A DNA stretch of 64,000 nt, taken from an uncultured Planctomycetota bacterium. GTDB lineage: Bacteria; Planctomycetota; Planctomycetia; Gemmatales; Gemmataceae. A program made the position numbers and the translations under genes. Every line of letters begins with the position of its first letter. The stretch's first letter is position 1. Positions 1,572 to 41,385 of this stretch are shown one piece after another. The stretch spans positions 264,853 through 328,852 of the forward strand of contig CAWATZ010000006.1 in NCBI GenBank assembly GCA_963784995.1, read 5' to 3'. The notes under the pieces were generated by a model. The model was not told the DNA's origin. It did no database searches and saw only the letters and a list, made by a program, of their open reading frames with translations.

Positions 1572-3987
1572 ATGCGCAGCGGATCGTGGTTGGTGTTCGC
1601 CCTCCTTCTTTCTCCTGGAGCTTCCGCGGCCCCGGTTGTCGCGGATCTCGACTCCGTCAGCCAGGACGAGCAGACGCTCCGCTCGGCCGGCCTGAGTGTC
1701 GATGGCCCGTCCCTGGTGGAGTTGTTCCGGCAACGGGCCCAGCTGGAAGCCGACCCGGAAGGGCTCAACACCTGGATCAGGCGTCTGAACGACGCGGACC
1801 CTGAAGTGCGTACTCGTGCCGCAAACCGGCTGCTGGGCCGAGGCACGGTCGCCTTGCCCCTGCTGCGTCGCGCGGCCAACGACCTGGGCGAGCCGGAACT
1901 GGCCGGCCGGGCCCAGCACTGCATCGACTTGATCGAAAGGCAATCTCCGCCGACCGTGACGCCGGTCGCCGCCGTTCGCCTGCTTTTGCATCGCAAACCG
2001 GCCGGTGCGGTGGAAGCGCTGCTGGCCTATCTGCCGGCGGCCGAGACTCCCGCCCTGGTGGAGGAAGTGGCCAGTGCCCTGACAGCACTGGCTTATGCTG
2101 ACGACAAACCGCACCCTGCCTTGCTGGCAGCGCTGACCGACAACCTGCCGCTGCGTCGCGCCGTGGCCGCAAGCGCCCTGGCCGGCAAGGAGCATCCCCA
2201 GGCCCGGCAGGCCGTCCACAAGCTGCTGCGTGATCCCAGGCCGCTGGTCCGACTCCGCGTTCGCCCTGGCCCTGACCGAGGCCAACGATCTGGACGGCGT
2301 GCCCGTGCTGATTGATCTGCTGGCTGAGGTGGCCCCCCAACAGCACAAGCCCATCGAGGACCTGCTGAGCCGGCTGGCTGGCGGCTGGACGCCCACCACG
2401 CCCCTGTGTGATGAGGAGGCGGCCCGCCGCATTCGCCGCAGTGCCTGGGCTGGCTGGTGGCAGAACAGCGACGGCCCCGCTCTGCTGGCCCAGGTGCGAC
2501 GCCACGTGCTCAGCGGCAAGGACCAGGCGAAGGCGCTGGCCCTGATCGAGAAGCTGGGGGATGACTCCTTCGAGGTGCGCCAGACCGCCTCCGCGGCGTT
2601 GACCGAGTTCGGCGCCCTGGCCGTGCCGCTGCTGCGTCAGGCCAGCCGCAGCACCGATGCGGAACGGGCCCGGCGGGCCGAGACGTGTTTGCAGGAGATT
2701 GCCGACAAGGGCGGCAAACCGTTGCCGGAACCGGTCTTCCGGCTGCTGAGCCTGCGCAAGCCGGCCGGTGCCGCGGAGGCGTTGCTGGACTATCTGCCTC
2801 ATGCCGAGATCGAACAGCGCAGCGTCGAGGTGCGGCAGGCGCTGGCGGCCCTGGCGGTGCGCGAGGGTCGGCTTGAGCCAGCCCTGGTGCGGGCGCTGGC
2901 AGATCCATTGCCCTTGCGGCGACTGGCCGCTGCCGAGGCCATCCTGGCAGCAGGTGCCCTGGAGCAACGGGACGCCGTGCGCAAGCTGCTGCGGGACGCT
3001 GATCCGCTGGTGCGGCTGCGAACCGCCGTGGCCCTGGCCGTCAAGCGTGATCGGGAAGCAATCCCGGTGCTGATCGAGTCGCTGGCCGAGGAACCTTCCG
3101 ACGCCAGCGCCGAAGCGGAGGGACTGCTGTACCGTCTGGCTGGCCAAGGCGGGCCGAAACTCGAGCAGGCTGAGGGCGCGGCTGGTCGTCGCCAGCGCCG
3201 TGACGCCTGGGCTGCCTGGTGGAAGGAGGCCGGTTCGTTGGTCGATCTGGCCGTTCTGGAGAACCACACGCGCCTGCTGGGGTTCACGCTCCTGGCAATG
3301 GGGGTAAAGGATGGTCAGGTGCTGGAACTGGGCCGGGATGGCAAGCCACGCTGGATCATTACCGGGCTGGCAGCTCCGGTAGACGCCCACGTCCTGCCCG
3401 GAGACCGCGTTCTGATTGCGGAGTACGAGGGGAGCCGTGTGACCGAACGCGATTTCAAGGGCAACATCCTCTGGCAAAAGGATGGGTTGGCAGCCAGTCC
3501 GGTCAACGTGCAGCGTCTGGCCAACGGCAATACCTTTATCGCCACGGAGAACGAGTTGCTTGAGGTCGATCGCGCCGGCAAGACCGTCTGGAGTCAGGCT
3601 TTTCCGAACCTCGATGCGGCGTGCAAATCTCGGGATGGCAGCATCACCTGCCTGGCGTACGACCAATGCATTCGCCTCAGTTCCGCCGGGAAGGAACTGA
3701 AGCGTTTTCCATTCGGCGGCAGGCCGACGTACAAGAGCGCAATCGACGTGTCGGCCGACGGCCGGATCTTGATTGCACTGCACAACCAGGTATCGGAAGT
3801 GGACGGCGAAGGCAAGGTCCTCTGGCAGGCCTCGGCACTGGGAATCGCCACGGCCACGCACTTGCCCAACGGCCACGTGCTCGTTGCCGGCGGCTTCCGG
3901 GAGGTAATCATGGAACTGGATCGGGCGGGCAAGGTCGTCTGGGAACACAAGGCGGGGATGCGGGTCTGGCGGGCCCGGCGGCGCTGA
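1572..3987 (+). CDS. HEAT-repeat + PQQ-like beta-propeller protein, paralog copy 2; +1 frameshift near 2260 (extra C in LVRLRV|ALAL region) relative to copies 3 and 4
   Basis: ATG at 1572 preceded by AGGAG. N-terminal signal peptide MRSGSWLVFALLL. Two ORF-track pieces (1164..2315 and 2230..3987) join collinearly against copy 3. Confidence 0.7.
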
Positions 3988-4064
3988 CCGGCCTGTCCGT
4001 TCCCCCTTGTGGGGGTTACGATAATCCCTGGAAACGCCGTCTCATCCAGTCCAGGAGAGCCTCC

Positions 4065-6536
4065 ATGCGCAGCGGATCGTGGCTGGTGTTCACCCTCATT
4101 CTTGTCTGCGTGACCTCCCTGGCGCTCGGCCGCCAGCCTGGCAATTCTCCCCGAGGCCCAACTGCTGGGGGAGCTTCGGCATCCGCCCCAGCTGCCAGGA
4201 AGCCTCCCACGGTCAGCGAGGACGAAGAGGAACTCCGGTTGGTAGGCCTGCAAGTCGATGGTCCGTCCCTGGTGGAGTTCTTTCGGCAACGGGCCGCGGT
4301 CCCCGCCGACCCCAAAGGGCTCCAGCCCTGGATCAGGCGTCTGAACGATGTGGACCCCGAAGTGCGGACTCGTGCCGCACACCGGCTGCTGGGCCGAGGC
4401 ACGGTCGCCTTGCCCCTGCTGCGTCGCGTCGCCAATGACCTGGGCGACCCTGAACTCGCTGACCGAGCCCAGCACTGCATCGACTTGATCGAAAGGCGCT
4501 CTCCGACGAACGTGACGCCGGTCGCCGCCGTTCGCTTGCTTCTGCATCGCAAACCGGCCGGGGCCGTGGAAGCGCTGCTGGCCTATCTACCGACGGCTGA
4601 GTCTCCCGCCCTGGTGGAGGAAGTGAGCCGTGCCTTGACGGCAATGGCTTATGCCAACGAAAAGCCGCACGCCGCCTTGCTGGCCGCGCTCACCGACAAT
4701 ATGCCGCTGCGTCGCGCCGTGGCCGCAAGCGCCCTGGCCGGAAAGGACCATCCCGAAGCACGGCCAGCCGTCCGCAAGCTGCTGCGCGATTCCAAACCGT
4801 TGGTCCGTCTCCGCGTCGCTCTGGCGTTAGCCTCGGCCAACGACCTCGACGGTGTCCCCGTTCTGATTGAGCTGCTGGCCGAGGTCGTGCCACCGCGGGA
4901 CAAGCCCATCGAGGAACTGCTGGGCCGGCTGGCGGGCGACTGGGCACCGACCACGCCTCAGGGTGACGATGCGGTCGCACGCCGCATTCGCCGCGCCGCC
5001 TGGGCCAGCTGGTGGCGGAACAGCGATAGCCCCGCCCTGCTGGCCCAGATGCGTCGCCATACGCTCAGCAGCAGCGACCAGGCCAAGGTGCTGGCGCTGA
5101 TCGACAAACTGGGCGATGACTCCTTCGAGGTGCGGCAGACCGCCTCGGGAGCGTTGACCGAGTTCGGAACCCTGGCGATACCGCTGCTGCGCCAGGCCAC
5201 GCGCAGCACCGATGCGGAACGGGCGCGGCGGGCCGAGACGTGTTTGCAGGACATTGCCGACAGGGGCGGCAAACCCTTGCCGGAGCCAGTCTTGCGGCTG
5301 CTGAGCCTGCGTCAGCCAGCAGGGGCCGTGGAAGCCTTGCTGGACTATCTGCCCCATGCCGAAATCGAACACCACCGCGTCGAGGTCCGCAAGGCGCTGG
5401 CAGCCCTGGCGGTGCGTGCCGGCCGACTGGAGCCAGCCCTGGTGCGGGCGCTGGCAGATCCATTGCCGGGCCGCCGACTGGCCGCTGCCGAGGCCATCCT
5501 GGCAGCGGGCACCCTGGAGCAACGCGCTGCCGTGCGCAAGCTGCTGCGTGACACTGATCCGTCGGTGCGACTGCGGATCGCCGCGGCCTTGGCCGGCAAG
5601 CGCGAGCGCGAAGCGATCCCGGTGCTGATCGAGTTGGTGGCTGAAGAGTCCTCCGACGCCAGCGGCGAAGCGGAGGAAATCCTGTATCGCCTGGCCGGCG
5701 AAGGTGGACCAAAGGTCGAGCCAGACAGGAGTACGGCTGGCCGGCGCCAGCGCCGCGACGCCTGGGCCGCCTGGTGGAAGCAGGTCGCTCCCTCGGTCAA
5801 TCTGGGCGTTCTGGAGAACCACGTGCCCTTGCTCGGGTATACCCTGCTGGTGAATAACAAACAGGTGCTGGAACTGGACCAGGACGGCAAGCCGCGCTGG
5901 ATCATTAACAACCTTCCTACCCCGCTGGATGCCCACGTCCTTCCCGGCGACCGCGTGCTGATCGCGGAGTTCTACAGCAAGCGTGTGACCGAGCGCGATT
6001 TCCAGGGTGCCATCCTGTGGCAAAAAGAAGGGCTGGAAGACCATCCGGTCAACGTTCAGCGTCTGGCCAACGGCAATACCTTTATCGCAACTGTTAATGG
6101 ATTGCTCGAAGTCGATCGTGCCGGCAAGACCGTCTGGAGCAAGCCGTTTCCAAACCTCACCGCGGCGTGCAAATCTCGGGATGGCAGCATCACCTGCCTG
6201 GACGGCGACGGCCAGTGCATTCGCCTCAGTTCTGTCGGCAAGGAACTGAAGCGGTTTCCTTCCGGCGGCAGGCCGACGTACAAGAGCGCAATCGACGTGT
6301 CGGCCGATGGCCGGATCTTGATTGCGCTGCACAACCAGGTATCGGAATTGGACGCCGAGGGCAAAGTCCTCTGGCAAGCCCCGGCACCGGGAATCACCAC
6401 GGCCACGCACTTGCCCAACGGCCACGTGCTCGTTGCCGGCGGCTTCCGGGGGGTAATCATGGAGCTGGATCGGTCGAGCAAGGTTGTCTGGGAATCCAAG
6501 CCCGGGCAGGGGGGCATCCGAGCGCGGCGGCGCTGA
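4065..6536 (+). CDS. HEAT-repeat + PQQ-like beta-propeller protein, paralog copy 3 (intact, 823 aa, signal peptide)
   Basis: ATG 4065 after caggagagcctcc. Uninterrupted frame. HEAT (PBS-lyase-like) repeats followed by a PQQ-like propeller. Confidence 0.85.
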   Translation: MRSGSWLVFTLILVCVTSLALGRQPGNSPRGPTAGGASASAPAARKPPTVSEDEEELRLVGLQVDGPSLVEFFRQRAAVPADPKGLQPWIRRLNDVDPEVRTRAAHRLLGRGTVALPLLRRVANDLGDPELADRAQHCIDLIERRSPTNVTPVAAVRLLLHRKPAGAVEALLAYLPTAESPALVEEVSRALTAMAYANEKPHAALLAALTDNMPLRRAVAASALAGKDHPEARPAVRKLLRDSKPLVRLRVALALASANDLDGVPVLIELLAEVVPPRDKPIEELLGRLAGDWAPTTPQGDDAVARRIRRAAWASWWRNSDSPALLAQMRRHTLSSSDQAKVLALIDKLGDDSFEVRQTASGALTEFGTLAIPLLRQATRSTDAERARRAETCLQDIADRGGKPLPEPVLRLLSLRQPAGAVEALLDYLPHAEIEHHRVEVRKALAALAVRAGRLEPALVRALADPLPGRRLAAAEAILAAGTLEQRAAVRKLLRDTDPSVRLRIAAALAGKREREAIPVLIELVAEESSDASGEAEEILYRLAGEGGPKVEPDRSTAGRRQRRDAWAAWWKQVAPSVNLGVLENHVPLLGYTLLVNNKQVLELDQDGKPRWIINNLPTPLDAHVLPGDRVLIAEFYSKRVTERDFQGAILWQKEGLEDHPVNVQRLANGNTFIATVNGLLEVDRAGKTVWSKPFPNLTAACKSRDGSITCLDGDGQCIRLSSVGKELKRFPSGGRPTYKSAIDVSADGRILIALHNQVSELDAEGKVLWQAPAPGITTATHLPNGHVLVAGGFRGVIMELDRSSKVVWESKPGQGGIRARRR

Positions 6537-6612
6537 CCGACTTGTCCATTCCGCCGGGCAGGGTTACGATCATCCTTTAGGACCACTCACATCCAGGCCA
6601 GGAGTGCCTCCC

Positions 6613-9087
6613 ATGCGCAGCGTATCGTGGCTGGTGTTCGCCCTCGTTCTTTTCTGTGTGGCTTCCGCAGGGCAGGGCCATTCTCCCAGAGCCTCAGCTG
6701 ACCCGGTGGGGTCTTCGTCAGCCGACCCGGTTGCCGGGGACCTCAGCTCCGTCCGCGAGGACGAAGAGAAACTCCGCTCGGCGGGCCTGCCTGTCGATGG
6801 TCCGGCCCTGGTGGAGTTGTTCCGACAACGGGCCGCGGTGGCGACCGATCCGGAAGGGCTCCAGCCCTGGATCAGGCGTCTGAACGACGCGGACCCGGAA
6901 GTCCGCGTTCGTGCGGCCCGCCGGCTGGTGGGCAAAGGCACGACGGCCGTGCCTTTGCTGCGTCGGGCGGCCAACGATCTGGGCGAGCCCGACCTGGCCA
7001 GCCGGGCCCGGCACTGCCTCGCATTGATCGAAAGGCAATCTCCGCCGACCGTGACGCCGGCCGCGGCCGTTCGCCTGCTGGCCCATCGCAAACCCGCCGG
7101 GGCGGTGGAAGCCCTGCTCGCCTACCTGCCGGCTGCGGAGACTCCCGCCCTGGTGGAGGAAGTGGCCAGTGCCCTGACCGCCCTGGCTTATCCGGGCGAC
7201 AAACCGCACGCTGCCTTGCTCGCGGCCCTCACCGACAACCTGCCGCTGCGTCGTGCCGTGGCCGGCTGCGCCCTGGCCGGCAAGGACCACCCCGAAGCAC
7301 GGCTGGCCGTCCGCAAGCTGCTGCGTGATCCCAAAGCGCCGGTCCGTCTCCGCGTTGCCCTGTCCCTGACCGAAGCCAACGATCTGGAAGGGGTGCCCGT
7401 CCTGATCGATCTGCTTGCCGAGGTGGTGCCCCCGCGGGACAGGCCCATCGAGGAGCTGCTCCAGCGGCTGGCGGGCGCCTGGACGCCGGCCACGCTGCCG
7501 AGTGACGATGCGGTCGCACGCCGCATTCGCCGCGACAGCTGGGCCAGTTGGTGGCAGAACAGCGATGGTCCCGCCCTGCTGGGCCAGCTGCGCCGGCACG
7601 TACTCAGCGGCAAGGACCAGGCCCGGGTGCAGGCCCTGATTGTCAAGTTGGGCGACGACACTTTTGAGGTGCGCCAGACGGCCTCCGGGGCGTTGACCGA
7701 GTTCGGAGCATTGGCCGTGCCGCTGCTGCGGGAGGCCACGCGCAGCACCGATGCGGAACGGGCGCGGCGGGCCGAAACGTGTCTGCAGGAGATTGCCGAC
7801 AAGGGCGGCAAACCGTTGCCGGAACCTGTCTTGCGGCTGCTGAGCCTGCGCAAGCCGGCCGGTGCCGTGGAGGCCTTGCTGGATTATTTGCCCCATGCCG
7901 AGGTCGAGGAGCGCAGCGACGAGGTGCGGAAGACGCTGGCCGCCCTGGCCATGCGTGAGGGCCGGTCAGAGCCGGCCCTGGTGCGGGCGCTGGAAGATCC
8001 CCAGCCGTTGCGGCGGCTGGCCGCTGCCGAGGCCATCGCGGCCGAAGGCGCCCTGGAGCAACGCGCCGCCGTGCGCAAGCTGCTGCGTGACAGTGATCCG
8101 CGCGTCCGGCTGCGCACGGCCCTGGCCCTGGCGATGAAGCGCGACCCCGAAGCGATCCCGGTCCTGATCGAGTCGGTGGCCGAGAAGCCAGCCGACGACA
8201 ACGCCGCGGCGGAGGAAATGCTGTACCGGCTGGCCGGCGACCACGTTCCGAAGCTCGAACCGGCTTCGGACGCTGCCGGCCGCCGCCAGCGCCGCGACGC
8301 CTGGGCGGCCTGGTGGAAAGAGGCCGCGGGCTCGGTCGATCTGGCCGTCCTGGAGGACCAGCCAGCCCAGCTGGGGTACACCCTGGTGGTGCTGGGGCGC
8401 GACAACGTCGTGCTGGAGCTGGGGCGCGACAACAAGCCGCGCTGGACCATCAGGGGGCTGGCGGAACCGGTGGATGCCGTCGTTCTGCCGGGCAACCGCG
8501 TGCTGATTGCCGAGCACTCCGGCGATCGGGTCACCGAACGCGATTTCCAGGGGAACGTCCTGTGGCAAAAAGATGGGCTAGGTGGTGGTCCGTTCAACGC
8601 CCAGCGGTTGGCCAACGGCAACACCTTCATCGCCGCGGAGAACGGCTTGTTCGAGGTCGATCGCAGTGGCCAGACGGTCTGGCGCCGGCCGTTTCCGAAC
8701 CTCAAGGCCGCGTACAGATCTCGGGATGGGAGCATCGCCTGCCTGGACGCCGCCGGGCAGTGCGTGCTGCTCTCCGCGGCCGGCAAGGAACTGAAACGGT
8801 TTGCCACGGGATTTGTGCCGTCGTCTCCCGGCGGCATCGAGGTGACCGCCAACGGCCGGATCCTGATCGCCCAGCAGAGCAGGAACAGGGTGATCGAAGT
8901 GGACACGGACGGGAAAATCCTCTGGCAAGCGGCGGCGCCGGGAATCTCCCGGGCCACGCGCCTGCCCAGCGGGCACACCCTGGTCGCCAGCCTGGACGGG
9001 GAACGCCTGACCGAACTGGACCCGGCAGGCAAGGTCATCTGGGAGTACAAGCCCGGCAAGGCAGTCTCGAGAGCACGGCGGCGCTGA
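6613..9087 (+). CDS. HEAT-repeat + PQQ-like beta-propeller protein, paralog copy 4 (intact, 824 aa, signal peptide)
   Basis: ATG 6613 (MRSVSWLVFALVLF) after aggagtgcctcc. Collinear with copy 3. Confidence 0.85.
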   Translation: MRSVSWLVFALVLFCVASAGQGHSPRASADPVGSSSADPVAGDLSSVREDEEKLRSAGLPVDGPALVELFRQRAAVATDPEGLQPWIRRLNDADPEVRVRAARRLVGKGTTAVPLLRRAANDLGEPDLASRARHCLALIERQSPPTVTPAAAVRLLAHRKPAGAVEALLAYLPAAETPALVEEVASALTALAYPGDKPHAALLAALTDNLPLRRAVAGCALAGKDHPEARLAVRKLLRDPKAPVRLRVALSLTEANDLEGVPVLIDLLAEVVPPRDRPIEELLQRLAGAWTPATLPSDDAVARRIRRDSWASWWQNSDGPALLGQLRRHVLSGKDQARVQALIVKLGDDTFEVRQTASGALTEFGALAVPLLREATRSTDAERARRAETCLQEIADKGGKPLPEPVLRLLSLRKPAGAVEALLDYLPHAEVEERSDEVRKTLAALAMREGRSEPALVRALEDPQPLRRLAAAEAIAAEGALEQRAAVRKLLRDSDPRVRLRTALALAMKRDPEAIPVLIESVAEKPADDNAAAEEMLYRLAGDHVPKLEPASDAAGRRQRRDAWAAWWKEAAGSVDLAVLEDQPAQLGYTLVVLGRDNVVLELGRDNKPRWTIRGLAEPVDAVVLPGNRVLIAEHSGDRVTERDFQGNVLWQKDGLGGGPFNAQRLANGNTFIAAENGLFEVDRSGQTVWRRPFPNLKAAYRSRDGSIACLDAAGQCVLLSAAGKELKRFATGFVPSSPGGIEVTANGRILIAQQSRNRVIEVDTDGKILWQAAAPGISRATRLPSGHTLVASLDGERLTELDPAGKVIWEYKPGKAVSRARRR

Positions 9088-9088
9088 A

Positions 9089-9176
9089 GTCCCCGGGTTG
9101 CGCTGCGCTCCACCCGGGGCTTTAGTCCCGAAAGCAGGAGTAAAGCCCCGGGTGGAGCGCAGCGCAACCCGGGGAC
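9089..9176. repeat. Perfect 36-bp-arm inverted repeat (16-nt loop) immediately after the stop of HEAT/PQQ copy 4; putative terminator / member of the CGCTGCGCTC palindrome family
   Basis: gtccccgggttgcgctgcgctccacccggggcttta (9089-9124) is the exact reverse complement of 9141-9176. Confidence 0.7.
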
Positions 9177-9686
9177 TCGAAGACCCTCACCGGATCACCT
9201 TGGGCTCAACCCAGCACGGGAACCCCTGCCACTCGATTTCCGCTACCCCTGCGAACCGCCTTGTCTCCGCGAGCATCGCCGCAGCGGCGAACACCTCGCG
9301 CAGGCGTTCTAAAGAGGAGGCATCCGACGCGGTAAGGATTGCTGGAGGCCCCTCCCTCGATTCGCTTCTCGTCATGGCATGCTCGTCTTGCTGTGACCGA
9401 ACACCCCCGTTCAGCCGCCGGGGCCGCCGGGAGGGGACTGAACGTCTCGGGAAGCCCCGGTTGGCTGCAACGTCTCGTTCAGCGGCGCCAGGCTTTCATT
9501 TGGGGAATTGTATCGCCAGGATCGCCGGCCCGGCAAGCACAGGCGCCGGCTCACTCTGGCAAATGCTGTTCGCAGACGATGATCTATACTTGAGTGCTCT
9601 GGCTGCGACGACCGGCCGCGAGTGAAATCGCGCCCTGGCGGAGGGCGCGGCCCAGTTCACGCGCGGGTTCGAGCTGTGGAGGCGCA

Positions 9687-11665: not shown

Positions 11666-13231
11666 TCACCACCTTGCACCCCGGCAGCGCCTCGCGCAGG
11701 CGCTGGCCCCTTCCTCGGTGATCGCCGTACCGAAGGCGTAGACAGACCGCAGTTTCTTGAGGCCGCGCAAGTGGACGAGGGCGCCGTCGCCCCGGTTCCC
11801 CACGTAGCTGAGCGTCAGGGAGCAAAGGTTCTCCAGATCCGCCAGCGCCGCCAGGCCGTCGTCTGTAACCCCGTGCAGGTTCTCCAACCGGAGTTGCTCC
11901 AGGCCGGCCAGGGCGGCGACGTGGCGGATGCCCGCGTCGGTGACGTGGTCACAGCCGTTGAGCTTCAGCTCGCGCAGCCCCTGGAGCCCGCGCAGCAAGC
12001 CCAGAGAGTCATCGGTCAGGTGGCGGCAGAACACCAGGTCGAGGGCGCGCAGGGAAGGCAGCTCTGCCAGGACAGCGAACCCGGAGGCAGAGATCCGTTC
12101 GTTGTGGCCCATCTCGAGGCGCTCCAGGACCGGGGCGGTGGTCAGGCGGGCCAGGGCAGCGTCGGAAAGGCCGCTGCACTCCGAGCAGTCGAGTTCGCGC
12201 AGGGAAGGCAGGCGTGCGATCGTCTCGAAGCCTTCAGCGCCGGGCCTGGTGCGGCGCACGTCCAGCTTGCGCAAGCTCTCCAGGCCCGCCAGGTGGGCGA
12301 CCCCAGAGTCGGATAGGCCGGTGCAGTAGGCGAGGTCCAGCACCTCGAGACGCGACATGCCGGCCACGCAGGCGAACCCTGCCGCGGTCAGGTTGGCGCA
12401 GAAGCAGAGATGGAGCTTCCGCAAATTGACCAGGGCGCGGAGGCGAGCGGCGCCGGTGTCTCCGAGGGACTTGCTGGCGCGAAGGTCGAGGTGTTGCAAG
12501 CCAGTCAGGTCGCCAACGTGAGCGAGGGCGGCGTCGGTCCGCGGGGTCTTCAGCCCCAGGGACAAGGAGCGGAGGCGGGAAAGGTCAGCCAGCGGCTCCA
12601 GACCGGCCGGGTCGAGGGCCGGGTCGTCCAGGCTCAGGTCCAGAGAGTGGAATCGGGGCAAGCGGCGCAGGTGGCGGAGCCCGGGACCGCGGACGGGCTT
12701 GAGCGAACCCAGGCTCAACTCTTGCAAGCGCTCGAGTTCACCCAGAAAGGCGAGGCCGTCGTCGCTGAGGTGGGACGAGCCCCACAACGACAGCGTCCGC
12801 ACCGCCCCGACCCGGTCTGCCGTCAAATCTCCGTTGCGGGCGGACTGGACGCTCAGGCCCTCGACCCACCCGGAGCCGAGGGCCGCTCCCGCTGCCACCG
12901 GGAAGGATTTGCCGGCCAGGGAGCGCCCCAGCAAGTTGGCGGAAAGGAGGCCGTCGCGAACGTACCAGGATCCCGAGGGCCGACCCAGCCAGGGCCCCCG
13001 GAGCGACTCGAGGATCGCGTCGGCACGGACCCGGTCGGGGCTGCGGGCATCCCAGGGAAGCCGGTCGCTGGTGGCCGAGAGGCGCACCATTTCCCCGCGT
13101 GGGTCGCCGCGTCGGTCGAGCCAGTCGGCCAGCCCCAGACGGGGTGCAAGCTCTTCGGGCGCGTCGTGGCAGGTGGCCAGCAGGGCCATTTCTTCTGCGG
13201 TGGGGACAAAGTGGGCACTGCGGCGAGCCAT
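11666..13231 (-). CDS. Leucine-rich-repeat (CC-type LRR) protein with N-terminal repeat-companion domain (TIGR02996-like, ...LADWLDRRGDPRGEMVRL...)
   Basis: Many LxxLxLxxC LRR units. N-terminus matches the ADWLEE-GDP-RAEFIRL type motif that I recall as TIGR02996 of Gemmata repeat proteins. Confidence 0.75.
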   Translation of the reverse strand: MARRSAHFVPTAEEMALLATCHDAPEELAPRLGLADWLDRRGDPRGEMVRLSATSDRLPWDARSPDRVRADAILESLRGPWLGRPSGSWYVRDGLLSANLLGRSLAGKSFPVAAGAALGSGWVEGLSVQSARNGDLTADRVGAVRTLSLWGSSHLSDDGLAFLGELERLQELSLGSLKPVRGPGLRHLRRLPRFHSLDLSLDDPALDPAGLEPLADLSRLRSLSLGLKTPRTDAALAHVGDLTGLQHLDLRASKSLGDTGAARLRALVNLRKLHLCFCANLTAAGFACVAGMSRLEVLDLAYCTGLSDSGVAHLAGLESLRKLDVRRTRPGAEGFETIARLPSLRELDCSECSGLSDAALARLTTAPVLERLEMGHNERISASGFAVLAELPSLRALDLVFCRHLTDDSLGLLRGLQGLRELKLNGCDHVTDAGIRHVAALAGLEQLRLENLHGVTDDGLAALADLENLCSLTLSYVGNRGDGALVHLRGLKKLRSVYAFGTAITEEGASACARRCRGARW

Positions 13232-13514
13232 CGTTGTGGAACCTCCAGGTCAGGCGAGCGCGGTTGGTGCGGCACGTGTTCCCCGCCACACAATGATGGC
13301 TCGTCGCGCACTCCGAGTCGCCCGAGTAAAGGATACTGTCGTGCCAGAAATGTTGCAGCACCGGGTTGGGCGATCGCACCTGGGCTGCCCTTCCCAAGGA
13401 GGCTGCGTTGTCCTGGGGCTTTCGTTCCAGGGAAGATACTGCTGGCAGAACAGCAGGTCCTGTCAACCCGCTCCGCGGATCGCAATACGGCTACATCGGC
13501 GACCTCGTGTCGCA

Positions 13515-13610
13515 CCCGAACGCCGAAATTCAGCAGCGGCGGCCGCTCCTGAGACCTGGAATTACAGGAGCCATGTTGCGGCCGCCGTCTGCTGAAATGG
13601 TTGGTTCGGC
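13515..13610 (-). other. attC-like recombination site (96 bp) of the cassette carrying the aspartic-protease gene pair
   Basis: Read on the minus strand: GCCGAAC (R'') overlapping the stop codon, imperfect inverted repeat CAGCAGACGGCGGCCGC / GCGGCCGCCGCTGCTGAA, terminal GTTCGGG (R'). Confidence 0.55.
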
Positions 13611-13984
13611 TACCTGTGCCGGAGCCGTTTGATCGTTACTTTGCCGCGGTAACGAACTTGCATCTTCAACTCGTGACCGCGCAACAGCCTCATACCGACC
13701 AGGGGATCGGTGTCTGCTTCATCGACCAGAATTTGACGTACTTTGCTGTCCCAGACCACTTTACCCACGTACACCCGGAAAACGCAGGTGCTGCCGTCGG
13801 CCAGTGTTGCCCGTTGCGTGCTTTGCCAGCGCAGGCCCAAGAGCGTAATCAGAGCCGGCGGTAAGGTGAGCGCTCCGGTATATCCCGAGTCAATGACCGC
13901 TTCAATCTCTTGCTCGCGGCCCTTGCGACCTCGAACTGTCAAGCGAATACGGGCTTCGTCGGCCTTGACCGCGCCAGTAATCAT
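13610..13984 (-). CDS. Retropepsin-like (clan AA) aspartic protease, ~124 aa (DSGYTG active-site-like motif)
   Basis: Motif ...VIDSGYTGALTLP... Overlaps the upstream partner gene by 4 bp. Confidence 0.65.
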   Translation of the reverse strand: MITGAVKADEARIRLTVRGRKGREQEIEAVIDSGYTGALTLPPALITLLGLRWQSTQRATLADGSTCVFRVYVGKVVWDSKVRQILVDEADTDPLVGMRLLRGHELKMQVRYRGKVTIKRLRHR

Positions 13985-14259
13985 GGCAAGTCCTGGCGTA
14001 GTTGTCGCCCGCCGAATCTTCGCGTCGAGCGAGAGCCGATGCGCACCATCCAGATTTGTGCCTCGGGCAGGCGACGCCGCAGTTTGTTGCCTGCCTTCAT
14101 CTCATCGGCAGCAATTTCGTACTGACCCGTTTCTATGTCGATGGCGAGAAACTTGCCTGTGTCTTGGGCCGTCAGCTTGGGAAGAATCTCCTTTTCGTAG
14201 ATGGCATCGCCACGCCTCGCGAATTCTTCTTTGCTGTAGCGCGGTTGTAAGGTTGCCAT
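13981..14259 (-). CDS. Small partner protein (92 aa, DUF5678-like?) co-transcribed with the clan AA aspartic protease
   Basis: 4-bp overlap (translational coupling). ...KFLAIDIETGQYEIAADE... No confident family assignment. Confidence 0.55.
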   Translation of the reverse strand: MATLQPRYSKEEFARRGDAIYEKEILPKLTAQDTGKFLAIDIETGQYEIAADEMKAGNKLRRRLPEAQIWMVRIGSRSTRRFGGRQLRQDLP

Positions 14260-14493
14260 GCGTTTACTCCCGGAGCCGCTCTCGTATGAGGTTGCATTGT
14301 TCCCTGTTCATTTTACTGATCGACGTCCGCAGTCGCCAGCCCTAAACCGAGGGCCCATTTGATACTCCGCTTGGAGGTAATCTACCCTGCCCCCATTTCT
14401 CTCCAACGAAAAGAAGAAAAAAACCTGCAGCATTCCGGAGTGCGCCTATTGACAAAAGAGGTCAGTGAGCGGTGCGCCCGACGTTGTTTCGCC

Positions 14494-14883
14494 CTATAGC
14501 TCGAACCACGACACGGCCTCCGACATCTGTTTAGCGCGAAAGAACTCCTTGGCGACGGAGCATGCCGTCTCGAACGGGACGATGAAATCGTTTGGCGTTT
14601 GCTCGCCGCTTGCCGGATCGCAACCTCGATACACAAGCGTCGTCCATCCGCCTTCGGGCAAGCCGTGACCGCCGAGACACCGGAAGCCGGGGTGGCCATC
14701 CCGCGGGAAATAGTGGACATCGGCCACATCCCCGCTGACGCGGAGTGCCAGGGCGGGATACTTTTCCTCGTTGGGGGTCAGCCAGAATAATCCGCCTCCG
14801 CGATCGTCGCGCCAAGCAAGAGCTGCTTCCAAGCTCTTGTCGTCCTCCGCGTGCCACGTTTGACGATACCCGTCTATTCGCAC
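14494..14883 (-). CDS. Cassette-like small protein (129 aa), possibly Imm1-family polymorphic-toxin immunity protein
   Basis: ...AWRDDRGGGLFWLTPNEEKYPALALRVSGDVADVHYFP... resembles Imm1 signatures from memory. Small, minus strand, inside the attC array. Confidence 0.5.
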   Translation of the reverse strand: MRIDGYRQTWHAEDDKSLEAALAWRDDRGGGLFWLTPNEEKYPALALRVSGDVADVHYFPRDGHPGFRCLGGHGLPEGGWTTLVYRGCDPASGEQTPNDFIVPFETACSVAKEFFRAKQMSEAVSWFEL

Positions 14884-14898
14884 TGGAATCCTCTTCGC

Positions 14899-14997
14899 TG
14901 CGAACGAAAAGGATAAGCTGCCGGGGCCGCCTGCAAGACCTCCATGCCGCGCGAAACCAGGATGGCGGCCCCGGTCAGCTTCATCCGGTGGTTCGGC
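14899..14997 (-). other. attC-like recombination site (99 bp) downstream of the lipoprotein cassette gene
   Basis: Minus strand: GCCGAAC ... inverted repeat GCTGACCGGGGCCGCC / GGCGGCCCCGGCAGC ... GTTCGCA. Same architecture as 13515-13610 and 15684-15782. Confidence 0.45.
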
Positions 14998-15040
14998 GGC
15001 CTGCCACCCTGTGTTGGCCCAAGCCGGAATTGCCCCCTGG

Positions 15041-15658
15041 CTACTTCAACCCGTCCGTGAGACCTGGCTCCTTTTCTTGCAGATGTTTCAGCAGCACTTC
15101 CGCATAGCGCTCGACGTCCGCTGTCTCCTCAAGCTTCGGCACCTCAGCGGGCAGGGCGATCTTCTTCTGCTGATAGGTAGGCGAAGCGGCTGTCAGGTCC
15201 AGCACGAAGACTCGGCCGGCGGCAGGATCAACCTCCTTACCGCCCACGGTAAGCACCTCTTTCGTGACCGCCGTGCGTTCCTTATTTAGCTCGTAATGGG
15301 CCGCCGCTTCAATGCGCTTGCCGTTGATCGTGCAGACGCTTTTGACTTCCACATCGCCCTGGCTGCGCGCGTAGCCGTCCAGGCCGAGCGAGCTTTCGTT
15401 GGATGTGGGCGGCAGCTTGAAAAGAATGATGTAGGTCAGTTGCTGGGAGGTCTTGGGCTTCGTCACCGTGCCAAACGTCACCCCAGGCTTGCCGGGGAGG
15501 ACCACGAGATGGCCGCCCGAAACCGCGAAATCGTTCGTAGCGGAGAGGAAACCGGCCGTGGTAATTTTTGGCTGAGGAGCGACACGATTGCCACAGCCGA
15601 CGGCGCCCGTCAGGGCGATAAGCAGCCCAAAACCATGCCAAGCACAACGTGTGTTCAT
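15041..15658 (-). CDS. Hypothetical lipoprotein (signal peptide + lipobox LTGAVGC), cassette-encoded
   Basis: MNTRCAWHGFGLLIALTGAVGCGN... Minus strand between two attC-like sites. Confidence 0.65.
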   Translation of the reverse strand: MNTRCAWHGFGLLIALTGAVGCGNRVAPQPKITTAGFLSATNDFAVSGGHLVVLPGKPGVTFGTVTKPKTSQQLTYIILFKLPPTSNESSLGLDGYARSQGDVEVKSVCTINGKRIEAAAHYELNKERTAVTKEVLTVGGKEVDPAAGRVFVLDLTAASPTYQQKKIALPAEVPKLEETADVERYAEVLLKHLQEKEPGLTDGLK

Positions 15659-15683
15659 CCGGAATTGTCTCCCAGTGCTGCGA

Positions 15684-15782
15684 GTCGAACGCCCCGCTCA
15701 GCAGCCGGCTCACGCGGGCCAGACAGCGAAGCTCGACAAGACTCACTCGCGTGGCCGGTCTGCTGCAGCTTTTGGTTCGGCG
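15684..15782 (-). other. attC-like recombination site (99 bp) 8 nt downstream of the stop of ORF 15791..16348
   Basis: + strand: GTCGAACGCC-ccg-CTCAGCAGCCGGCTCACGCG ... CGCGTGGCCGGTCTGCTGCAGC-TTTTGGTTCGGC. Nearly identical ends to site 13515-13610 (GAACGCC...CAGCAGC / TCTGCTG...TTGGTTCGGC). Confidence 0.55.
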
Positions 15783-15790
15783 TTCCTTTG

Positions 15791-16348
<558 letters not shown>

Positions 16349-17048
16349 CCACGCTACTCCAAGAGGGCAGACCAGACGAGAGGTCTTTGTGTCTCAGGGA
16401 CGCACCAAGGTAGCCGCATTACGCGGCCCTCGACATCTGCATTTCCCTGTGAGGTCTGTTGGCTCTTGTTTGGAGATAACGGCGGGCAGTCCATTCGCCA
16501 TCCGCTCCGTTACGTCGTTGTTGTCACCCTGGCGGACCTTCACCCTGTCTGACCCATTACAGCTCAGCGTTCGGCTACTACGCCGCCTCCGCCATCCTGC
16601 CCGCTCGCTGGCATTGTCGCGTCTGTTGGCCCGGTTGGACTCCAGGTACAGATGCAGCGGTTTAGGATTTCCCACCTTCCGTAAGCACAGACTGTAGAAC
16701 CCTTAGCTGCCTGCTCCACGCCGGGTGGCTGGGTGACAACACGTTTGGCGTTCGGAAACCAAACGTCCCTCCACCATACCTTTTGGTCCAGGTGATGCAG
16801 CCGTTGCACCTGTTATCACTTACGACGCTCACTCGCAGGTTTCTCGCGTCAGCATCGGTTCAGGGTTCGACACGCAGCCACTTTCGGCTGGCAGCCGGTG
16901 TTCTTTGTCAGCAGGCTTCCCACCTTACCCTTTGCCAAAGGGGAACGCAGGCTGCTCAACCCTTACACCGTTGTCATGGTATAGCTCCTTCAGAGCAATC
17001 TGTACATACGTTAAGTGGCGCACCCGAACTTGTGATTAGGCTGACCGG

Positions 17049-17206
17049 CCGGTCAGCATATTTCTCCCGGTCAGCATATTTCGCCTGGTCTCGCTATCAA
17101 GGCTCCGGTCAGCCTATTTCCGCTTCCCGGTCCGCCTAGCAAGGCGTCGGTCAGCCTATTTCCAGCTGCCCGGTCAGCGTATTTTTCCCCGGTCAGCCTA
17201 TCACGG
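17049..17206. repeat. Array of seven direct repeats CCGGTCAGC[A/C]TATTTC (16-18 bp, spacing 0-22 bp), preceded by perfect palindrome CTGACCGGCCGGTCAG (17041-17056), about 120 bp upstream of intI
   Basis: Units at 17049, 17067, 17105, 17127, 17147, 17170 and 17189. Non-coding. Could be IntI accessory sites in attI or regulator binding sites. Confidence 0.6.
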
Positions 17207-17242
17207 TTTGTCCCCCAGTTCAATTTTTTTCTTTTTTTCTTC

Positions 17243-17272
17243 TTGACATCGTGACAGAGAAAAGTTAATGAT
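17243..17272 (+). promoter_or_regulatory. Sigma70-like promoter (TTGACA-N18-TAATGA) for intI in an AT-rich island
   Basis: TTGACA at 17243-17248, TAATGA at 17267-17272. The only AT-rich stretch in the region. RBS AGGAGG at 17312-17317. Confidence 0.35.
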
Positions 17273-17276
17273 CTCG

Positions 17277-17291
17277 TGTTCATATTGAACA
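17277..17291. promoter_or_regulatory. Perfect 15-bp palindrome TGTTCAtatTGAACA between the -10 element and the intI RBS; candidate operator (LexA-type?)
   Basis: Perfect 6-3-6 palindrome overlapping the predicted transcription start. I recall integron integrases being commonly SOS-regulated. Confidence 0.35.
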
Positions 17292-17323
17292 AAGAGTCAC
17301 ATTCCCTGTTCAGGAGGAAAGCC

Positions 17324-18142
17324 ATGTCTGATGATCGCGGTCCGTCCCCAGAGTCGTCCGCCCAGCCATCGCCGCCGCGCTTGCTCGACCAGTTGTGTCA
17401 AGTCGCACGGAAGCGTGGCCATGCCGAATGGACTGTGGCCGACTACGTCAAGTGGGTCCGCCGCCTGGTCCGCTTCCACGGCCAGCGCCATCCCCGGGAG
17501 CTGGGTCTTGCGGAAGTGTCCCAGTTCCTGGAGTCGGTTGCCCAGACGGAGAAAAACCCAGTCCGGGCCATCGCCGCCAGCCGGGAGGCCCTCGATTTCC
17601 TGTATCGCGAGGTGCTGTGCCTGGACCTGGGAGAGCTGCCCTGGCCGAGGCCGCCCCGGCTGCTCGACCAGGTCCGCCAGGTGCTGCGCGTCCGCCACTA
17701 TGCCCGCCGTACCGAGGACTGTTACCTCGGCTGGATCCTCCGCTTCATCTTCTTTCACAAGAAACGTCACCCCCGCGACATGGGCGCTGCCGAGGTGGAG
17801 CAGTTCCTCACCGACCTGGCGGTCCGCGGCCACGTCTCGGCCAGCACGCAAAACCAGGCGCTGAACGCCCTGGTGTTCCTGTATCAGCAAGTATTGGAGA
17901 TCGACCTGGGCCGGCTGGACGCGGTGCGGGCGCGGCGGCCGAAACGGCTGCCCGTGGTGCTGGCTCCCGAGGAAGTCGCGGCGGTGCTGCAACGCATCGA
18001 GGGAGGGGACGGCGTCTTCCAGTTGATGGCCCGGCTGCTCTACGGCTGCGGTCTGCGGCTGCTGGAATGCTGTCAGCTGCGTGTCAAGGACGTCCAGCTG
18101 GCCCGTGGGCAGATCGTCGTGCGCGGCGGCAAGGGGAACAAG
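17324..18142 (+). pseudogene. intI: Integron integrase intI remnant: IntI1-like N-terminal half with a tandemly duplicated, diverged N-terminal domain, truncated after GKGNK (no catalytic R-H-R-Y domain)
   Basis: ...HYARRTEDCYLGWILRFIFFHKKRHPRDMGAAEVEQFLTDLA...VSASTQNQALNALVFLYQQVL...RRLPVVLAPEEVAAVLQRIEGGDGVFQLMARLLYGCGLRLLECCQLRVKDVQLARGQIVVRGGKGNK aligns closely with IntI1 residues ~20-175. No frame downstream encodes a tyrosine-recombinase catalytic domain. Confidence 0.8.
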
Positions 18143-18228
18143 GAAGTAGCTGCCGTTGGGCAGGGTGCAACAGGAACAAGACCCAGGGATGGTAGCCGGG
18201 CACCGTCTGCCTGCCCGACAGCTCCTGG

Positions 18229-18305
18229 TCGTTGCAGCGTTGCAGTCCTTGCACGCATTGCACTGCAATGCAGGGCGGCTGGGCTGGCTGCAACGCTGCA
18301 ACGAC
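18229..18305. repeat. Inverted repeat (17-bp perfect arms TCGTTGCAGCGTTGCAG / CTGCAACGCTGCAACGA with an internally palindromic 43-nt loop) just downstream of the intI truncation point
   Basis: Left arm 18229-18245, right arm 18289-18305. Lies between convergent intI remnant and pentapeptide gene. Confidence 0.5.
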
Positions 18306-18517
18306 GCCTGGTTGCCCCTCGGAACCAGCGCAGCAAGCACCTCGAAGTGTCAAGTGGTCGCCCGCCCCAATCGTCCCGGAGGAGACCAAGCCGGAGGGGA
18401 GCCAGCGTGCCATCTCGCTGTGTGTGTGCCGCAGCGCCATGCAATCCATCCGCGCTCTGGCTTCCCTCCTTGCTTGTGCCGTCCGGGGTGTGGAACACGG
18501 CGCACCCCGGACGGCCC

Positions 18518-23126: not shown

Positions 23127-24062
23127 TCAACCCTGCTCGGTCCCTCGCGGATGGAAGCGCTGGTGAATGGCCTTGAGCCGGTCGCGGTCCACGTGGGTGT
23201 AGCGCTGGGTGGTCTGGATGCTGCTGTGGCCGAGCAGCTCCTGGACGGTGCGCAGGTCGGCGCCGCCGGCCAGCAGGTGCGTGGCGAAGCTGTGTCGCAG
23301 CGTGTGCGGACTGACGCGGGCGTTCAGGCCGGTGCGGCGGACGTACTTCTTGACCACCACCCAGAGCATCTCGCGCGTCAGTTGCCGGCCGCCCCGGCTG
23401 ACGAAGACCCATTCCGTCTCGGGTGCGGTCTGGACCAGCGAGGGCCGTTGCTGTTCCAGGTAGGTGCGCAGGGCGTGGATGGCGGGCTTACCGATCGGCA
23501 CGATGCGCTGCTTGCTGCCCTTGCCGAAGCATTTGAGGAAGGACGAGTCCAGATGCAGGTCGGTCAGCTTGAGCCCGACCACCTCCGAGGCCCGCGCGCC
23601 GGTGGCGTACAGCGTCTCCAGGATGGCCCGGTCGCGCAGGTAAAAGCGATCCTGCGACAGGGGGGCTTCCAGCAGCCGGGTCACCGCCTCCGGGCTGAGC
23701 ACCTGCGGAATGCGGGCCCACAGGCTCGGGGAGCTGAGCAGATCGACCGTGCCGGTGGTGGTGCGCTCCTCCAGGCGCAGGAAGCGGTAGAACATCTTGA
23801 GCGAGACCAGGTGCCGGGCCTGGCTGGCCGGCGCCAGCCCTTCGGTGCGGAGGAACTCGACGTAGTCGGTCAGCTCGCGGAGGTTGGGCAGCAGGTAATT
23901 GGCAACGCCGCCGCCGGCCACCCAGTGGAGGAACCGATCCAGGTCGCGCGTGTAGGCCAGGTAGGTGTTGTTCGCCAGGCCGCGCTCGCCCTGGACGTAG
24001 TGGCGAAAGGCCTGGATGTCGTCGTTGAGAGCGGTAAAGCGGGCGGTCTCGTCGGTGGGCAT
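23127..24062 (-). CDS. xerD: Tyrosine recombinase XerC/XerD family
   Basis: Full catalytic domain ...ARASEVVGLKLTDL...GKGSKQRIVP...HTLRHSFATHLLAGGADLRTVQELLGHSSIQTTQRYTHV. Confidence 0.85.
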   Translation of the reverse strand: MPTDETARFTALNDDIQAFRHYVQGERGLANNTYLAYTRDLDRFLHWVAGGGVANYLLPNLRELTDYVEFLRTEGLAPASQARHLVSLKMFYRFLRLEERTTTGTVDLLSSPSLWARIPQVLSPEAVTRLLEAPLSQDRFYLRDRAILETLYATGARASEVVGLKLTDLHLDSSFLKCFGKGSKQRIVPIGKPAIHALRTYLEQQRPSLVQTAPETEWVFVSRGGRQLTREMLWVVVKKYVRRTGLNARVSPHTLRHSFATHLLAGGADLRTVQELLGHSSIQTTQRYTHVDRDRLKAIHQRFHPRGTEQG

Positions 24063-41268: not shown

Positions 41269-41385
41269 GTTTTTATCCCCTCGCCCCGAACGAGCCGCCA
41301 GGTTTATCCCGGCGGTCCTGTCCGCCGGGATAAACCCGGCGGCTCGTCAGGCGTAAGGAAAAGTACCCTCAACGAGACAGCTACC

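Follow-up and report, generated by a model that had tools for sequence, protein, structure and literature searches.

What remains of an integron once its integrase gene has been broken, and what occupies the DNA between that gene and the first cassette? Both questions are raised by a 64-kb stretch of DNA from an uncultured planctomycete (contig CAWATZ010000006.1), referred to here as the window; all positions are given relative to its start. A first-pass annotation of this DNA had described, at 13515 to 18305, an integron of canonical divergent layout, with a truncated intI gene on the plus strand and small cassette genes on the minus strand, the two being separated by non-coding DNA. We conclude with considerable confidence that the locus is a sedentary, Gemmataceae-like chromosomal integron with a dead intI gene, a conserved attI site, at least three cassettes that end in attC sites and group II introns without open reading frames (ORFs) at the GTTCGG core of its recombination sites. 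The integron itself is ordinary and adds little, being one more decayed chromosomal integron in an already catalogued phylum. The new part is the association of sense-strand, ORF-less introns with the integron core site.

The integrase gene lacks its catalytic half

The integrase gene and the DNA next to it comprise two features (aa, amino acids):

17324 to 18145, plus strand: 5' half of intI (aa 1 to 274), identified by matches to TIGR02249, PF13495 (twice) and PF00589 and by the point where homology ends
18146 to 18517, no strand: sequence past the deletion breakpoint, unlike the intI or SEC-C gene of relatives

Against the NCBIfam profile TIGR02249 (“integron integrase”; profile length 315, cut-off 265 bits), the product of the plus-strand ORF at 17324 to 18148 (275 aa, start ATG 17324, ribosome binding site GGAGGA) scored 255.3 bits, in a match confined to profile positions 1 to 160 of 315 that falls just under the cut-off because only those positions exist. 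The same residues scored 61.6 bits with XerC and 60.2 bits with XerD, about 190 bits less, which upheld the assignment of this ORF to IntI rather than to a generic Xer or phage integrase. Pfam matches were to PF13495 (Phage_int_SAM_4), twice in tandem, and to positions 3 to 66 of 172 of PF00589; of the catalytic domain, the initial ~60 aa are retained, through the motif GKGNK. The duplication of the SAM-like domain is also detectable as a DNA repeat (17371/17650). Of the ~270 aa that had been aligned with the N-terminal half of IntI1, only aa ~105 to 274 are equivalent to it, residues 1 to 100 being the extra, duplicated SAM-like domain. The planctomycete-clade IntI proteins of 450 to 467 aa likewise have the N-terminal SAM-like (core-binding) domain twice in tandem (window 17324 to 17900; alignment A2); intI genes of other phyla from the same scan match over ~500 bp only, and we found no published description of a SAM-like domain duplication in IntI.

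A protein search with the window IntI returned thousands of homologues, the best of them 450 to 467 aa long; hundreds of close homologues carry the name integron integrase from their source, some of them as Gemmataceae integron integrase. Two relatives, P0002 (90% identity) and P0007 (78% identity), are full length and cover TIGR02249 positions 1 to 315 with 470 and 462 bits, respectively. In the protein alignment, the window IntI tracks its relatives to ...VRGGKGNK and ends there, whereas beyond GKGNK the relatives have DRVVMLP, the IntI-typical segment LPxALERKYPRA and the HxxR/H/Y catalytic residues. The IntI-specific segment (ALERKYP...) and the catalytic H-R-H-Y residues are thus absent from the window copy, which ends at aa 274, and the gene is therefore an IntI pseudogene and not an active IntI. 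A search of the window with full-length relatives (tblastn) found no C-terminal remnant in any frame, and at the DNA level the homology with all related loci breaks off at 18144. We rejected a frameshift as the cause of the short gene in favor of a deletion, since tblastn in all frames failed to find the missing half. The 3' (catalytic) half of a true intI gene was deleted at 18144/18145, in keeping with the missing catalytic domain of the first-pass annotation, and the window copy is consequently unable to make an active recombinase. Decayed intI genes also occur elsewhere in the clade, in P0001 (92% identity, the closest relative), P0013 and P0067.

On the 3' side of intI, where the relatives carry a SEC-C-domain gene, the window has 372 bp of unrelated sequence and then a convergent pentapeptide-repeat gene. 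About 85 bp beyond the breakpoint lies a perfect 18-nt inverted repeat (18228 to 18245 and 18288 to 18305; GTCGTTGCAGCGTTGCAG and CTGCAACGCTGCAACGAC) with a 42-nt loop. Two other recombinase sequences were encountered. One is a second tyrosine recombinase gene in the window, Xer-like, at 23166 to 23714 (minus strand), which is 32% identical to IntI relatives over the catalytic domain. The other is an intI-like fragment at 1492 to 2020 of locus L004, 74 to 80% identical to window positions 17582 to 17989, which lies within the cassette array of a Gemmataceae metagenome-assembled genome (MAG), 8 kb upstream of the main L004 intI.

The repeats between the small genes are attC sites

Four attC sites lie on the strand opposite intI. 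Their scores refer to R1, a covariance model built from the three window sites attC-A to attC-C and one site from a related locus (four sequences), which served as a stand-in for the IntegronFinder attC model:

13515 to 13612, minus strand: attC-A (R1, 91.2 bits; fold z-scores of -5.2 and -6.5)
14899 to 14999, minus strand: attC-B (R1, 103 bits)
15684 to 15783, minus strand: attC-C (R1, 84.4 bits; pattern; fold)
9396 to 9485, minus strand: fourth attC, more divergent, GCTGAAC...GTTCGGT, unoccupied (R1, 44.5 bits, E value 8e-10)

The pattern GCCGAAC-N60-90-GTTCG occurs three times in the window against 0.47 expected, always on the minus strand (13517 to 13610, 14901 to 14997 and 15686 to 15781). 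These three window sites are imperfect hairpins of 94 to 97 nt that run from GCCGAAC to GTTCG followed by G, C or A. All three have a bulged T on the plus-strand 3' arm and two of the three have a second bulge 6 bp away; given the minus-strand location of the ORFs, it is the plus strand that corresponds to the recombinogenic bottom strand in the standard attC model. In the consensus of the four sites, a 5-bp R''/R' helix (CGAAC/GTTCG), unpaired spacers of 9 to 10 nt, a bulge-interrupted 16-bp L''/L' helix and a variable loop follow one another, with five compensatory pairs. Core position 4 (G in R'', C in R') deviates from the textbook RYYYAAC/GTTRRRY. The sites start 0 to 44 nt past the stop codons of minus-strand ORFs; in attC-A, the stop codon of the protease ORF described below overlaps R'', and R' is GTTCGG at 13521 to 13516.

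R1 was also run over 80 loci selected solely for encoding an IntI relative. It gave 117 matches, mostly in arrays upstream of intI on the opposite strand, and about 40 unrelated loci were positive, from Planctomycetota, Verrucomicrobiota, Bacteroidota, Proteobacteria, Desulfobacterota and others. The window repeats are genuine attC sites, and the earlier description of attC-like repeats is borne out by the pattern excess, the folds, the covariation and R1. The family had also been called novel, which does not hold: the same sites (GCCGAACCA..CAGCWGAC..CWGCTGAGC..CGTTCGG) fill arrays in MAGs of Gemmataceae, Planctomycetaceae and Pirellulaceae, and R1 cross-detects sites in other phyla. Nor are all the small minus-strand ORFs separated by attC sites, as had been thought; the ORFs exist, but attC sites follow three groups of them only, and R1 found none between the ORFs at 14494 to 14883 and 13981 to 14259.

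The arms of attC-B are nearly identical to those of an attC in the related locus L006 (8424 to 8525), which follows an unrelated ORF. A shared cassette was rejected on this point, the cassette 2 ORF of the window and the L006 ORF being unrelated proteins. Long, near-perfect palindromes of the repetitive extragenic palindromic (REP) type, unrelated to attC, lie at 9081 to 9181 and 41289 to 41350. The second scores weakly with R1 and was rejected as an attC, being a plain REP-like hairpin. The G+C content is 0.59 to 0.62 across the array (14 to 18 kb) compared with ~0.65 to 0.70 in the flanks, which fits acquired DNA.

The attI site is conserved in related integrons

Between the attC array and intI, we assigned the following:

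17040 to 17197, minus strand: putative attI accessory repeat array with six GCTGACCGG motifs (TATGCTGACCGG units), from repeat counts and a counterpart in locus L084
17024 to 17039, minus strand: attI core CTAATCACAAGTTCGG, with the expected crossover between the G and the TT of GTTCGG, conserved with L006 and L084
17243 to 17272, plus strand: candidate integrase promoter (PintI), TTGACA-18-AATGAT, from a consensus scan
17100 to 17073, minus strand: candidate cassette promoter (Pc), TTGATA-16-TATGCT, a weaker match that faces the cassettes, from the same kind of scan

The window has 10 occurrences of the motif GCTGACCGG where 1.7 are expected, and 6 of the 10 fall within 17040 to 17197; the same region has five or six copies of CCGGTCAGCNTATTTC (17049 to 17197). 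The innermost two GCTGACCGG motifs make a palindrome at 17040 to 17057, which is followed by CTAATCACAAGTTCGG. For comparison we used the window, L006 and L084, two further loci (L001 and L083) having too little upstream DNA. The cores are TTAATCACCAGTTCGG in L006 and GCTAAACAGCTGGTTCGG in L084, and both are unoccupied. Three 45-bp repeats precede the L006 core. In L084, eight TTATGCTGACCGGCGCGGTC repeats stand in the equivalent place, with the same palindrome and then ...CTGGTTCGG. The attI sites of these related integrons thus have three to eight direct repeats upstream of the core (window, 17040 to 17197; L084, 3240 to 3400; L006, 9720 to 9850), the repeat unit holding GCTGACCGG in the window and L084 and a GTTCGG-like box in L006. 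The motif GCTGACCGG is also present in the L'' arm of attC-B. The repeats are plausibly accessory IntI-binding sites. A T-rich tract, TTTTTTTCTTGACA, ahead of the candidate PintI is common to L006; otherwise, what had been annotated as a promoter/operator comes down to consensus matches. The canonical divergent layout of an integron is borne out by the IntI profile, the attC arrays and this conservation of attI.

A group II intron without an ORF lies between attI and cassette 1

The intI-proximal gap of ~1 kb, previously regarded as non-coding, is mostly a group II intron:

16264 to 17023, minus strand: complete ORF-less group II intron, 760 nt, identified by RF00029, RF02012, copies elsewhere and covariation
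16750 to 16755, minus strand: exon-binding site 1 (EBS1), the loop sequence CCGAAC of a covarying hairpin, complementary over 6 bp to the 5'-exon GUUCGG (intron-binding site 1, IBS1)

The Rfam family RF00029 (Intron_gpII, domains V and VI; gathering score 40 bits) matched 16264 to 16338 (minus strand) with 70.1 bits and is the only Rfam family at curated threshold in the window. RF02012 (group-II-D1D4-7) matched 16870 to 16983 with 29.6 bits, below its gathering score of 34 bits, and this sub-threshold match suggests an IIB-like class. The intron begins with GUGCGCC right after the attI core GTTCGG, ends with ...CCUAUCCCUAC (...CCCUAC) at 16264 and, in cassette sense, separates the attI core from cassette 1. 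Its branch A is 7 nt from the 3' end, within a covarying helix, the domain VI basal helix being AGGG/CCCU in the window and AGUG/CACU in other copies. Because a tblastn search with a group II intron-encoded protein (IEP) found no reverse transcriptase (RT)/maturase in the window, and the ORFs inside the intron had no Pfam match, we consider it an ORF-less derivative.

Further copies were recovered by scanning metagenome contigs for exact matches to one 26-mer of the intron, which yielded eight contigs. In an alignment of eight sequences (A6), 14 base pairs show compensatory changes, compared with 5.8±1.5 when columns were shuffled (none of 500 shuffles attained 14) and 1 or 2 in slid controls. 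In the RNAalifold structure, 98.4% of the cells are paired, a figure that flatters, the structure having been derived from the same alignment; the counts of compensatory changes are the more telling result.

Copies of the intron follow the core of other recombination sites

At least four further sites, all on other contigs, are occupied by the 760-nt family, in every case directly 3' of (G/A)TTCGG and in the sense of the cassettes; the 5' exons read GUUCGG, except for AUUCGG at one site. Locus L084, whose IntI is 75% identical to that of the window and decayed, has an ORF-less intron of 753 nt that is 85 to 90% identical to the window intron. It lies directly 3' of an attC (59 bits) that ends in ...CGTTCGG, and the attI site of L084 is empty. 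In L087 and L093, an attC (60 and 89 bits, respectively) ends at the first base of the intron. L090 has a weak attC (11 bits), ending in ...CATTCGG, before the intron, and in L088 the intron lies in an attI-like region of GACCGG repeats. Positions 1 to 1238 of L088 (Ga0058887_1506601) hold a tandem of two distinct group II introns, both ORF-less, spaced by 21 nt and preceded by (C/T)GACCGG repeats; of these, the first ends in ...CCCUAC and has a domain V/VI match at 626 to 726 (60.5 bits), and the second belongs to the window family.

Sites that hold copies 85 to 90% identical differ in their flanks, on the 5' side and on the 3' side alike. This fixes the bounds of the intron (after GTTCGG at one end and after CUAC at the other) and means that the intron moved alone, neither within a cassette nor by descent. 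In all four complete copies, the start codon of the next ORF lies ~15 to 35 nt past the 3' end of the intron. The insertions are at +5 nt from the expected crossover (between the G and the TT), on the expressed (top) strand.

One hairpin suggests how the site may be recognized. At the usual location of EBS1 (intron positions ~255 to 290), the loop UUUCCGAACG is unchanged in all eight sequences and its stem covaries (CG/UA, 4:4; GC/AU, 5:3). EBS1 in this loop, CCGAAC, has the sequence of the attC R'' box.

A search with a domain V model over 84 sources (1.03 Mb) found introns in the window, L084, L006, L007 and L010 only, all in cassette sense, plus one outside the array in L005; there was no antisense insertion among the 84 sources.

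Other introns in the window and in related arrays

Next to attC-A lies a second intron sequence:

13232 to 13515, minus strand: 5' fragment (about 180 to 284 nt) of a different group II intron, from an RF02012 match and the junction after attC-A

The RF02012 match (31.3 bits, E value 6.8e-4; 13337 to 13457, minus strand) is below the gathering score of 34. The fragment begins with GUGCGAC right after the GTTCGG of attC-A, a junction like that of the 760-nt intron, and stops before a leucine-rich repeat (LRR) protein gene (13231). Its RF02012 match starts 58 nt from the 5' end, compared with ~60 nt in the full-length intron of the L006 type, and no domain V was found after the fragment.

L006 and L007 are two integrons of one MAG, each with a 2.4-kb intron (L006, 5395 to 7860; L007, 2350 to 4815), the copies being more than 99% identical. 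These introns encode a 572-aa RT-maturase-HNH protein. They lie on the sense strand and split an attC between its 9-nt spacer and its L'' box (GCCGAAC plus 9 nt on one side, CAGCAGAC on the other), as established by comparison with unsplit attC sites. Their 5' end is apparently AUGCG, not GUGYG, and for the 3' end of the L006 intron we rejected ...CUAC in favor of ...CUACCCGGC, in line with where the Rfam match ends (5395) and with the unsplit attC sites. The IEP of the L006 intron is closest to PDB 6ME0 (573 bits), a chain that we take to be the RT of the Thermosynechococcus elongatus IIB intron T.el4h; this relationship and the HNH domain indicate that the L006/L007 IEP is not of class C. 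Locus L010 holds a degenerate intron. We rejected the idea that the 760-nt intron, the fragment at 13232 to 13515 and the L006 intron are recent copies of one another, since global and local alignments showed no similarity beyond domain V; they belong to different lineages.

How the introns may use the integron core site

A mechanism can be outlined in which the intron RNA would find its site by pairing of EBS1 (CCGAAC) with GUUCGG and would retrohome by reverse splicing into the top strand, with an RT/maturase supplied in trans. The function of attC or attI should survive the insertion, which leaves six of the seven R' positions in place. The intron falls within the limits of the cassette downstream of it, and IntI would therefore move both together. 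Its sense orientation would make splicing from the Pc transcript feasible, which would restore a 5' untranslated region in which ...AAGUUCGG is joined to CCGCAGGAGG just upstream of the cassette 1 start codon.

One sequence may preserve a trace of splicing. The JGI contig Ga0134029_1223124 (L092) is 1010 nt long and consists of intron sequence only. There, a U separates ...GAGGUCCUACCU from GUGCGCC, such that the branch-A position (read as T) abuts G1 of the intron; the period is 745 nt, the expected size of a lariat circle. The junction could possibly reflect reverse transcription across a 2'-5' branch, in which case the family would splice by branching in nature.

From these elements we tentatively propose, as a possibility that we hold short of probable, a guild of non-autonomous ORF-less introns that is hosted by planctomycete integrons and specialized, on the expressed strand, for their core site. 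In these introns, EBS1 would copy the R'' box, their RNA would compete with R'' for R' (GTTCGG) and insert 5 nt inside the next cassette, the site would be left usable, and the introns would be carried by IntI and spliced from the mRNA.

Several points weigh against this account of the locus and its introns. Neither the window nor any contig with the 760-nt family contains an RT/maturase gene, so that mobility and splicing must depend on a partner outside these contigs. GTTCGG occurs 55 times in the window; EBS1 pairing alone is therefore insufficient and some further determinant of the site must exist, which might be a top-strand hairpin or a single-stranded state of the site. IBS2, or any second exon-binding match, is not conserved, and positions -7 to -12 of six 5' exons differ. 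The lariat reading of L092 assumes an assembly derived from RNA, and the arms of that contig, which is chimeric, differ by ~8%. The copy at attI may have inserted there directly or may have arrived with an intron-bearing cassette. The second intron of the window is called from a sub-threshold Rfam match and its junction, and Pc, PintI and the role of the attI repeats are read from consensus-level resemblance.

Alternatives to a decayed integron with introns at its core sites

The array could be no relic at all. In this scenario, only the window intI is dead and the cassettes are still moved in trans by an intact paralogue of intI at another place in the genome, such that the earlier label of a sedentary, inactivated relic would be right for the integrase gene and wrong for the array. 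The window attC sites are well formed and score like those beside intact intI genes, attI is intact and conserved, and the MAG of L006 and L007 provides a case of two integrons in one genome. On the other hand, no other IntI is encoded in the 64-kb window, where the sole other tyrosine recombinase is the Xer-like one described above; the array is short and includes a truncated intron and cassettes that are fused or rearranged, as decay predicts; and decayed intI genes recur in the clade. We regard action in trans as unlikely, though by no means far-fetched, and retain the sedentary integron as the better description.

A second alternative concerns the introns, which might be inert debris that spread passively (by cassette or homologous recombination, or by descent) without splicing or homing, their position at GTTCGG being accidental. 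There is no IEP anywhere nearby, one of the two window copies is truncated, and ORF-less bacterial introns are generally deemed to have lost mobility (PMC4424553). However, the differences in both flanks among copies speak against cassette transfer or descent, compensatory substitutions maintain the structure at 85 to 90% identity, the EBS1 loop does not vary and can pair with each 5' exon, and the L092 junction is lariat-like. Passive spread is accordingly quite improbable in our judgment.

That there is no integron here, only a fragment of a generic Xer or phage tyrosine recombinase beside REP-like palindromes between small genes, could draw on the missing IntI-specific insertion and catalytic residues, on a score of 255 bits just below the cut-off of 265 and on the unrelated REP-like palindromes that do occur in the window, but it is hardly credible given the ~190-bit advantage of TIGR02249 on the same residues, the full-length passage of relatives 78 to 90% identical through the IntI model, the R''/spacer/L''-bulge/loop/L'/R' anatomy of the palindromes and the retrieval by R1 of attC arrays beside intI in many phyla.

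The cassettes and the left end of the array

The genes of the array are as follows:

15791 to 16246, minus strand: cassette 1 ORF, 151 aa from a probable GTG start at 16246, with AGGAGG (16254 to 16259) upstream; no family match
15041 to 15658, minus strand: cassette 2 ORF, 205 aa, with a lipoprotein-signal-like N terminus (...LTGAVGC); no Pfam, NCBIfam or PADLOC match
13610 to 14883, minus strand: cassette 3, three ORFs without an internal attC, from the ORF list, profile searches and R1
11666 to 13231, minus strand: gene of an LRR protein that has TIGR02996 as its N-terminal domain, from profile matches; an LRR homologue is flanked by attC sites in L006

The cassette 1 ORF had been called at 15791 to 16348. 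A minus-strand ORF is indeed present, but the call is overlong, since its first ~34 codons overlap domains V and VI of the group II intron; the start is probably GTG 16246, 7 nt after AGGAGG. Pipelines that treat the intI-proximal gap as attI or promoter will mis-call ORFs in the same way. Cassette 3 comprises ORFs at 14494 to 14883 (129 aa), 13981 to 14259 (92 aa) and 13610 to 13984 (124 aa). The last overlaps the 92-aa ORF by 4 nt and encodes a clan-AA aspartic protease (TIGR03698, 52.8 bits, below the cut-off of 57.35). The pair (13610 to 14259) has a layout like that of a toxin-antitoxin cassette, with an A-rich spacer of 234 bp upstream. Besides the sub-threshold match of the protease, searches of the cassette proteins against PADLOC, Pfam and NCBIfam gave nothing significant; a match to Imm1 (E value 0.005) was disregarded. 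Apart from the LRR gene, the cassette proteins had no homologues in other arrays.

The left end of the array is disturbed. Beyond attC-A come the truncated intron, the LRR gene, a plus-strand ORF for a membrane protein and then, 2.2 kb past the LRR gene, the fourth attC. The array thus probably extends to the left of 13515, as far as the fourth attC (9396 to 9485), and the LRR gene is probably the gene of a fourth cassette. Beside the fourth attC, two tandem paralogous ORFs of 870 to 970 aa (3621 to 6536 and 6484 to 9087, plus strand) have near-identical repeat architecture.

Comparison with known integrons and introns

The integrons of planctomycetes had been called poorly described, but intI has been listed for this phylum in genome surveys since 2007-2008 (PMC2426708) and hundreds of homologues are already named. 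Like sedentary integrons with an inactivated intI (e.g., those of Xanthomonas) and the surveyed planctomycete integrons, the window integron has a divergent arrangement of intI, attI and array and attC sites that are homogeneous within the lineage. It also shares with them mostly ORFan cassettes, a toxin-antitoxin-like pair and a decayed intI. Unlike them, it has a tandem duplication of the SAM-like domain in IntI, six to eight direct TATGCTGACCGG repeats in attI and a very short array.

ORF-less introns are rare in bacteria and usually rely on related IEPs in trans (PMC4424553). The window family resembles the ORF-less introns that are spliced or mobilized in trans (those of T. elongatus and of the survey by Simon et al. 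2008) in consisting of compact, ribozyme-only derivatives beside IEP-encoding relatives that may serve them in trans (PMC4424553). It differs from introns of the T. elongatus type in its target, which is the recombination site of a mobile element and not a gene or another intron. One ORF-less family has here made several independent insertions with maintained structure and, possibly, a lariat trace.

Two introns outside the IIC-attC lineage have been reported in the same orientation. UHB.I2 (Sonbol & Siam 2021) is a group IIB1/CL1 intron of a soda-lake integron that lies in sense just downstream of an attC (PMC7923331), and one top-strand IIC intron was reported in Enterobacter cloacae (PMC7923331). 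The window introns are like both in being sense and immediately downstream of an attC. Those are, however, single, IEP-encoding cases without a conserved target, whereas here an ORF-less family occupies several independent sites with a 6-nt EBS1-IBS1 pairing. Our literature searches for planctomycete or ORF-less introns at attC or attI found nothing beyond the cases cited here.

The only introns with an established integron specificity are the group IIC-attC introns (S.ma.I2 and relatives), which insert into the bottom strand, antisense to the cassettes, and block transcription from Pc (PMC3001079). As with them, group II introns here prefer integron recombination sites, just 3' of a folded hairpin and between cassettes (PMC3001079). 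The orientation is not theirs, both window introns and all relatives being on the cassette-sense strand. The position also differs, the window introns lying 5 nt beyond the crossover, 3' of R' or attI, and the IIC-attC introns at the gene-proximal end of attC; for the latter, the insertion point was taken from PMC3001079 only, as bottom strand and antisense. The window intron has no ORF, whereas those of the IIC-attC lineage code for a class C IEP of the endonuclease-minus (En-minus) type, within a monophyletic attC subclade. Its domain I resembles group-II-D1D4-7, as in the En-plus IIB/CL-type intron of related loci and unlike IIC-attC. Integron recombination sites thus appear to have been colonized independently by another intron lineage, with expression consequences opposite to those of IIC-attC. 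Introns of cassette polarity make an intron-based model of how genes and attC sites are joined directly testable. If the proposed specialization is real, these introns would be the mirror image of the antisense IIC-attC lineage, and the shared polarity of gene, intron and attC would fit intron-mediated cassette genesis better than the antisense lineage does.

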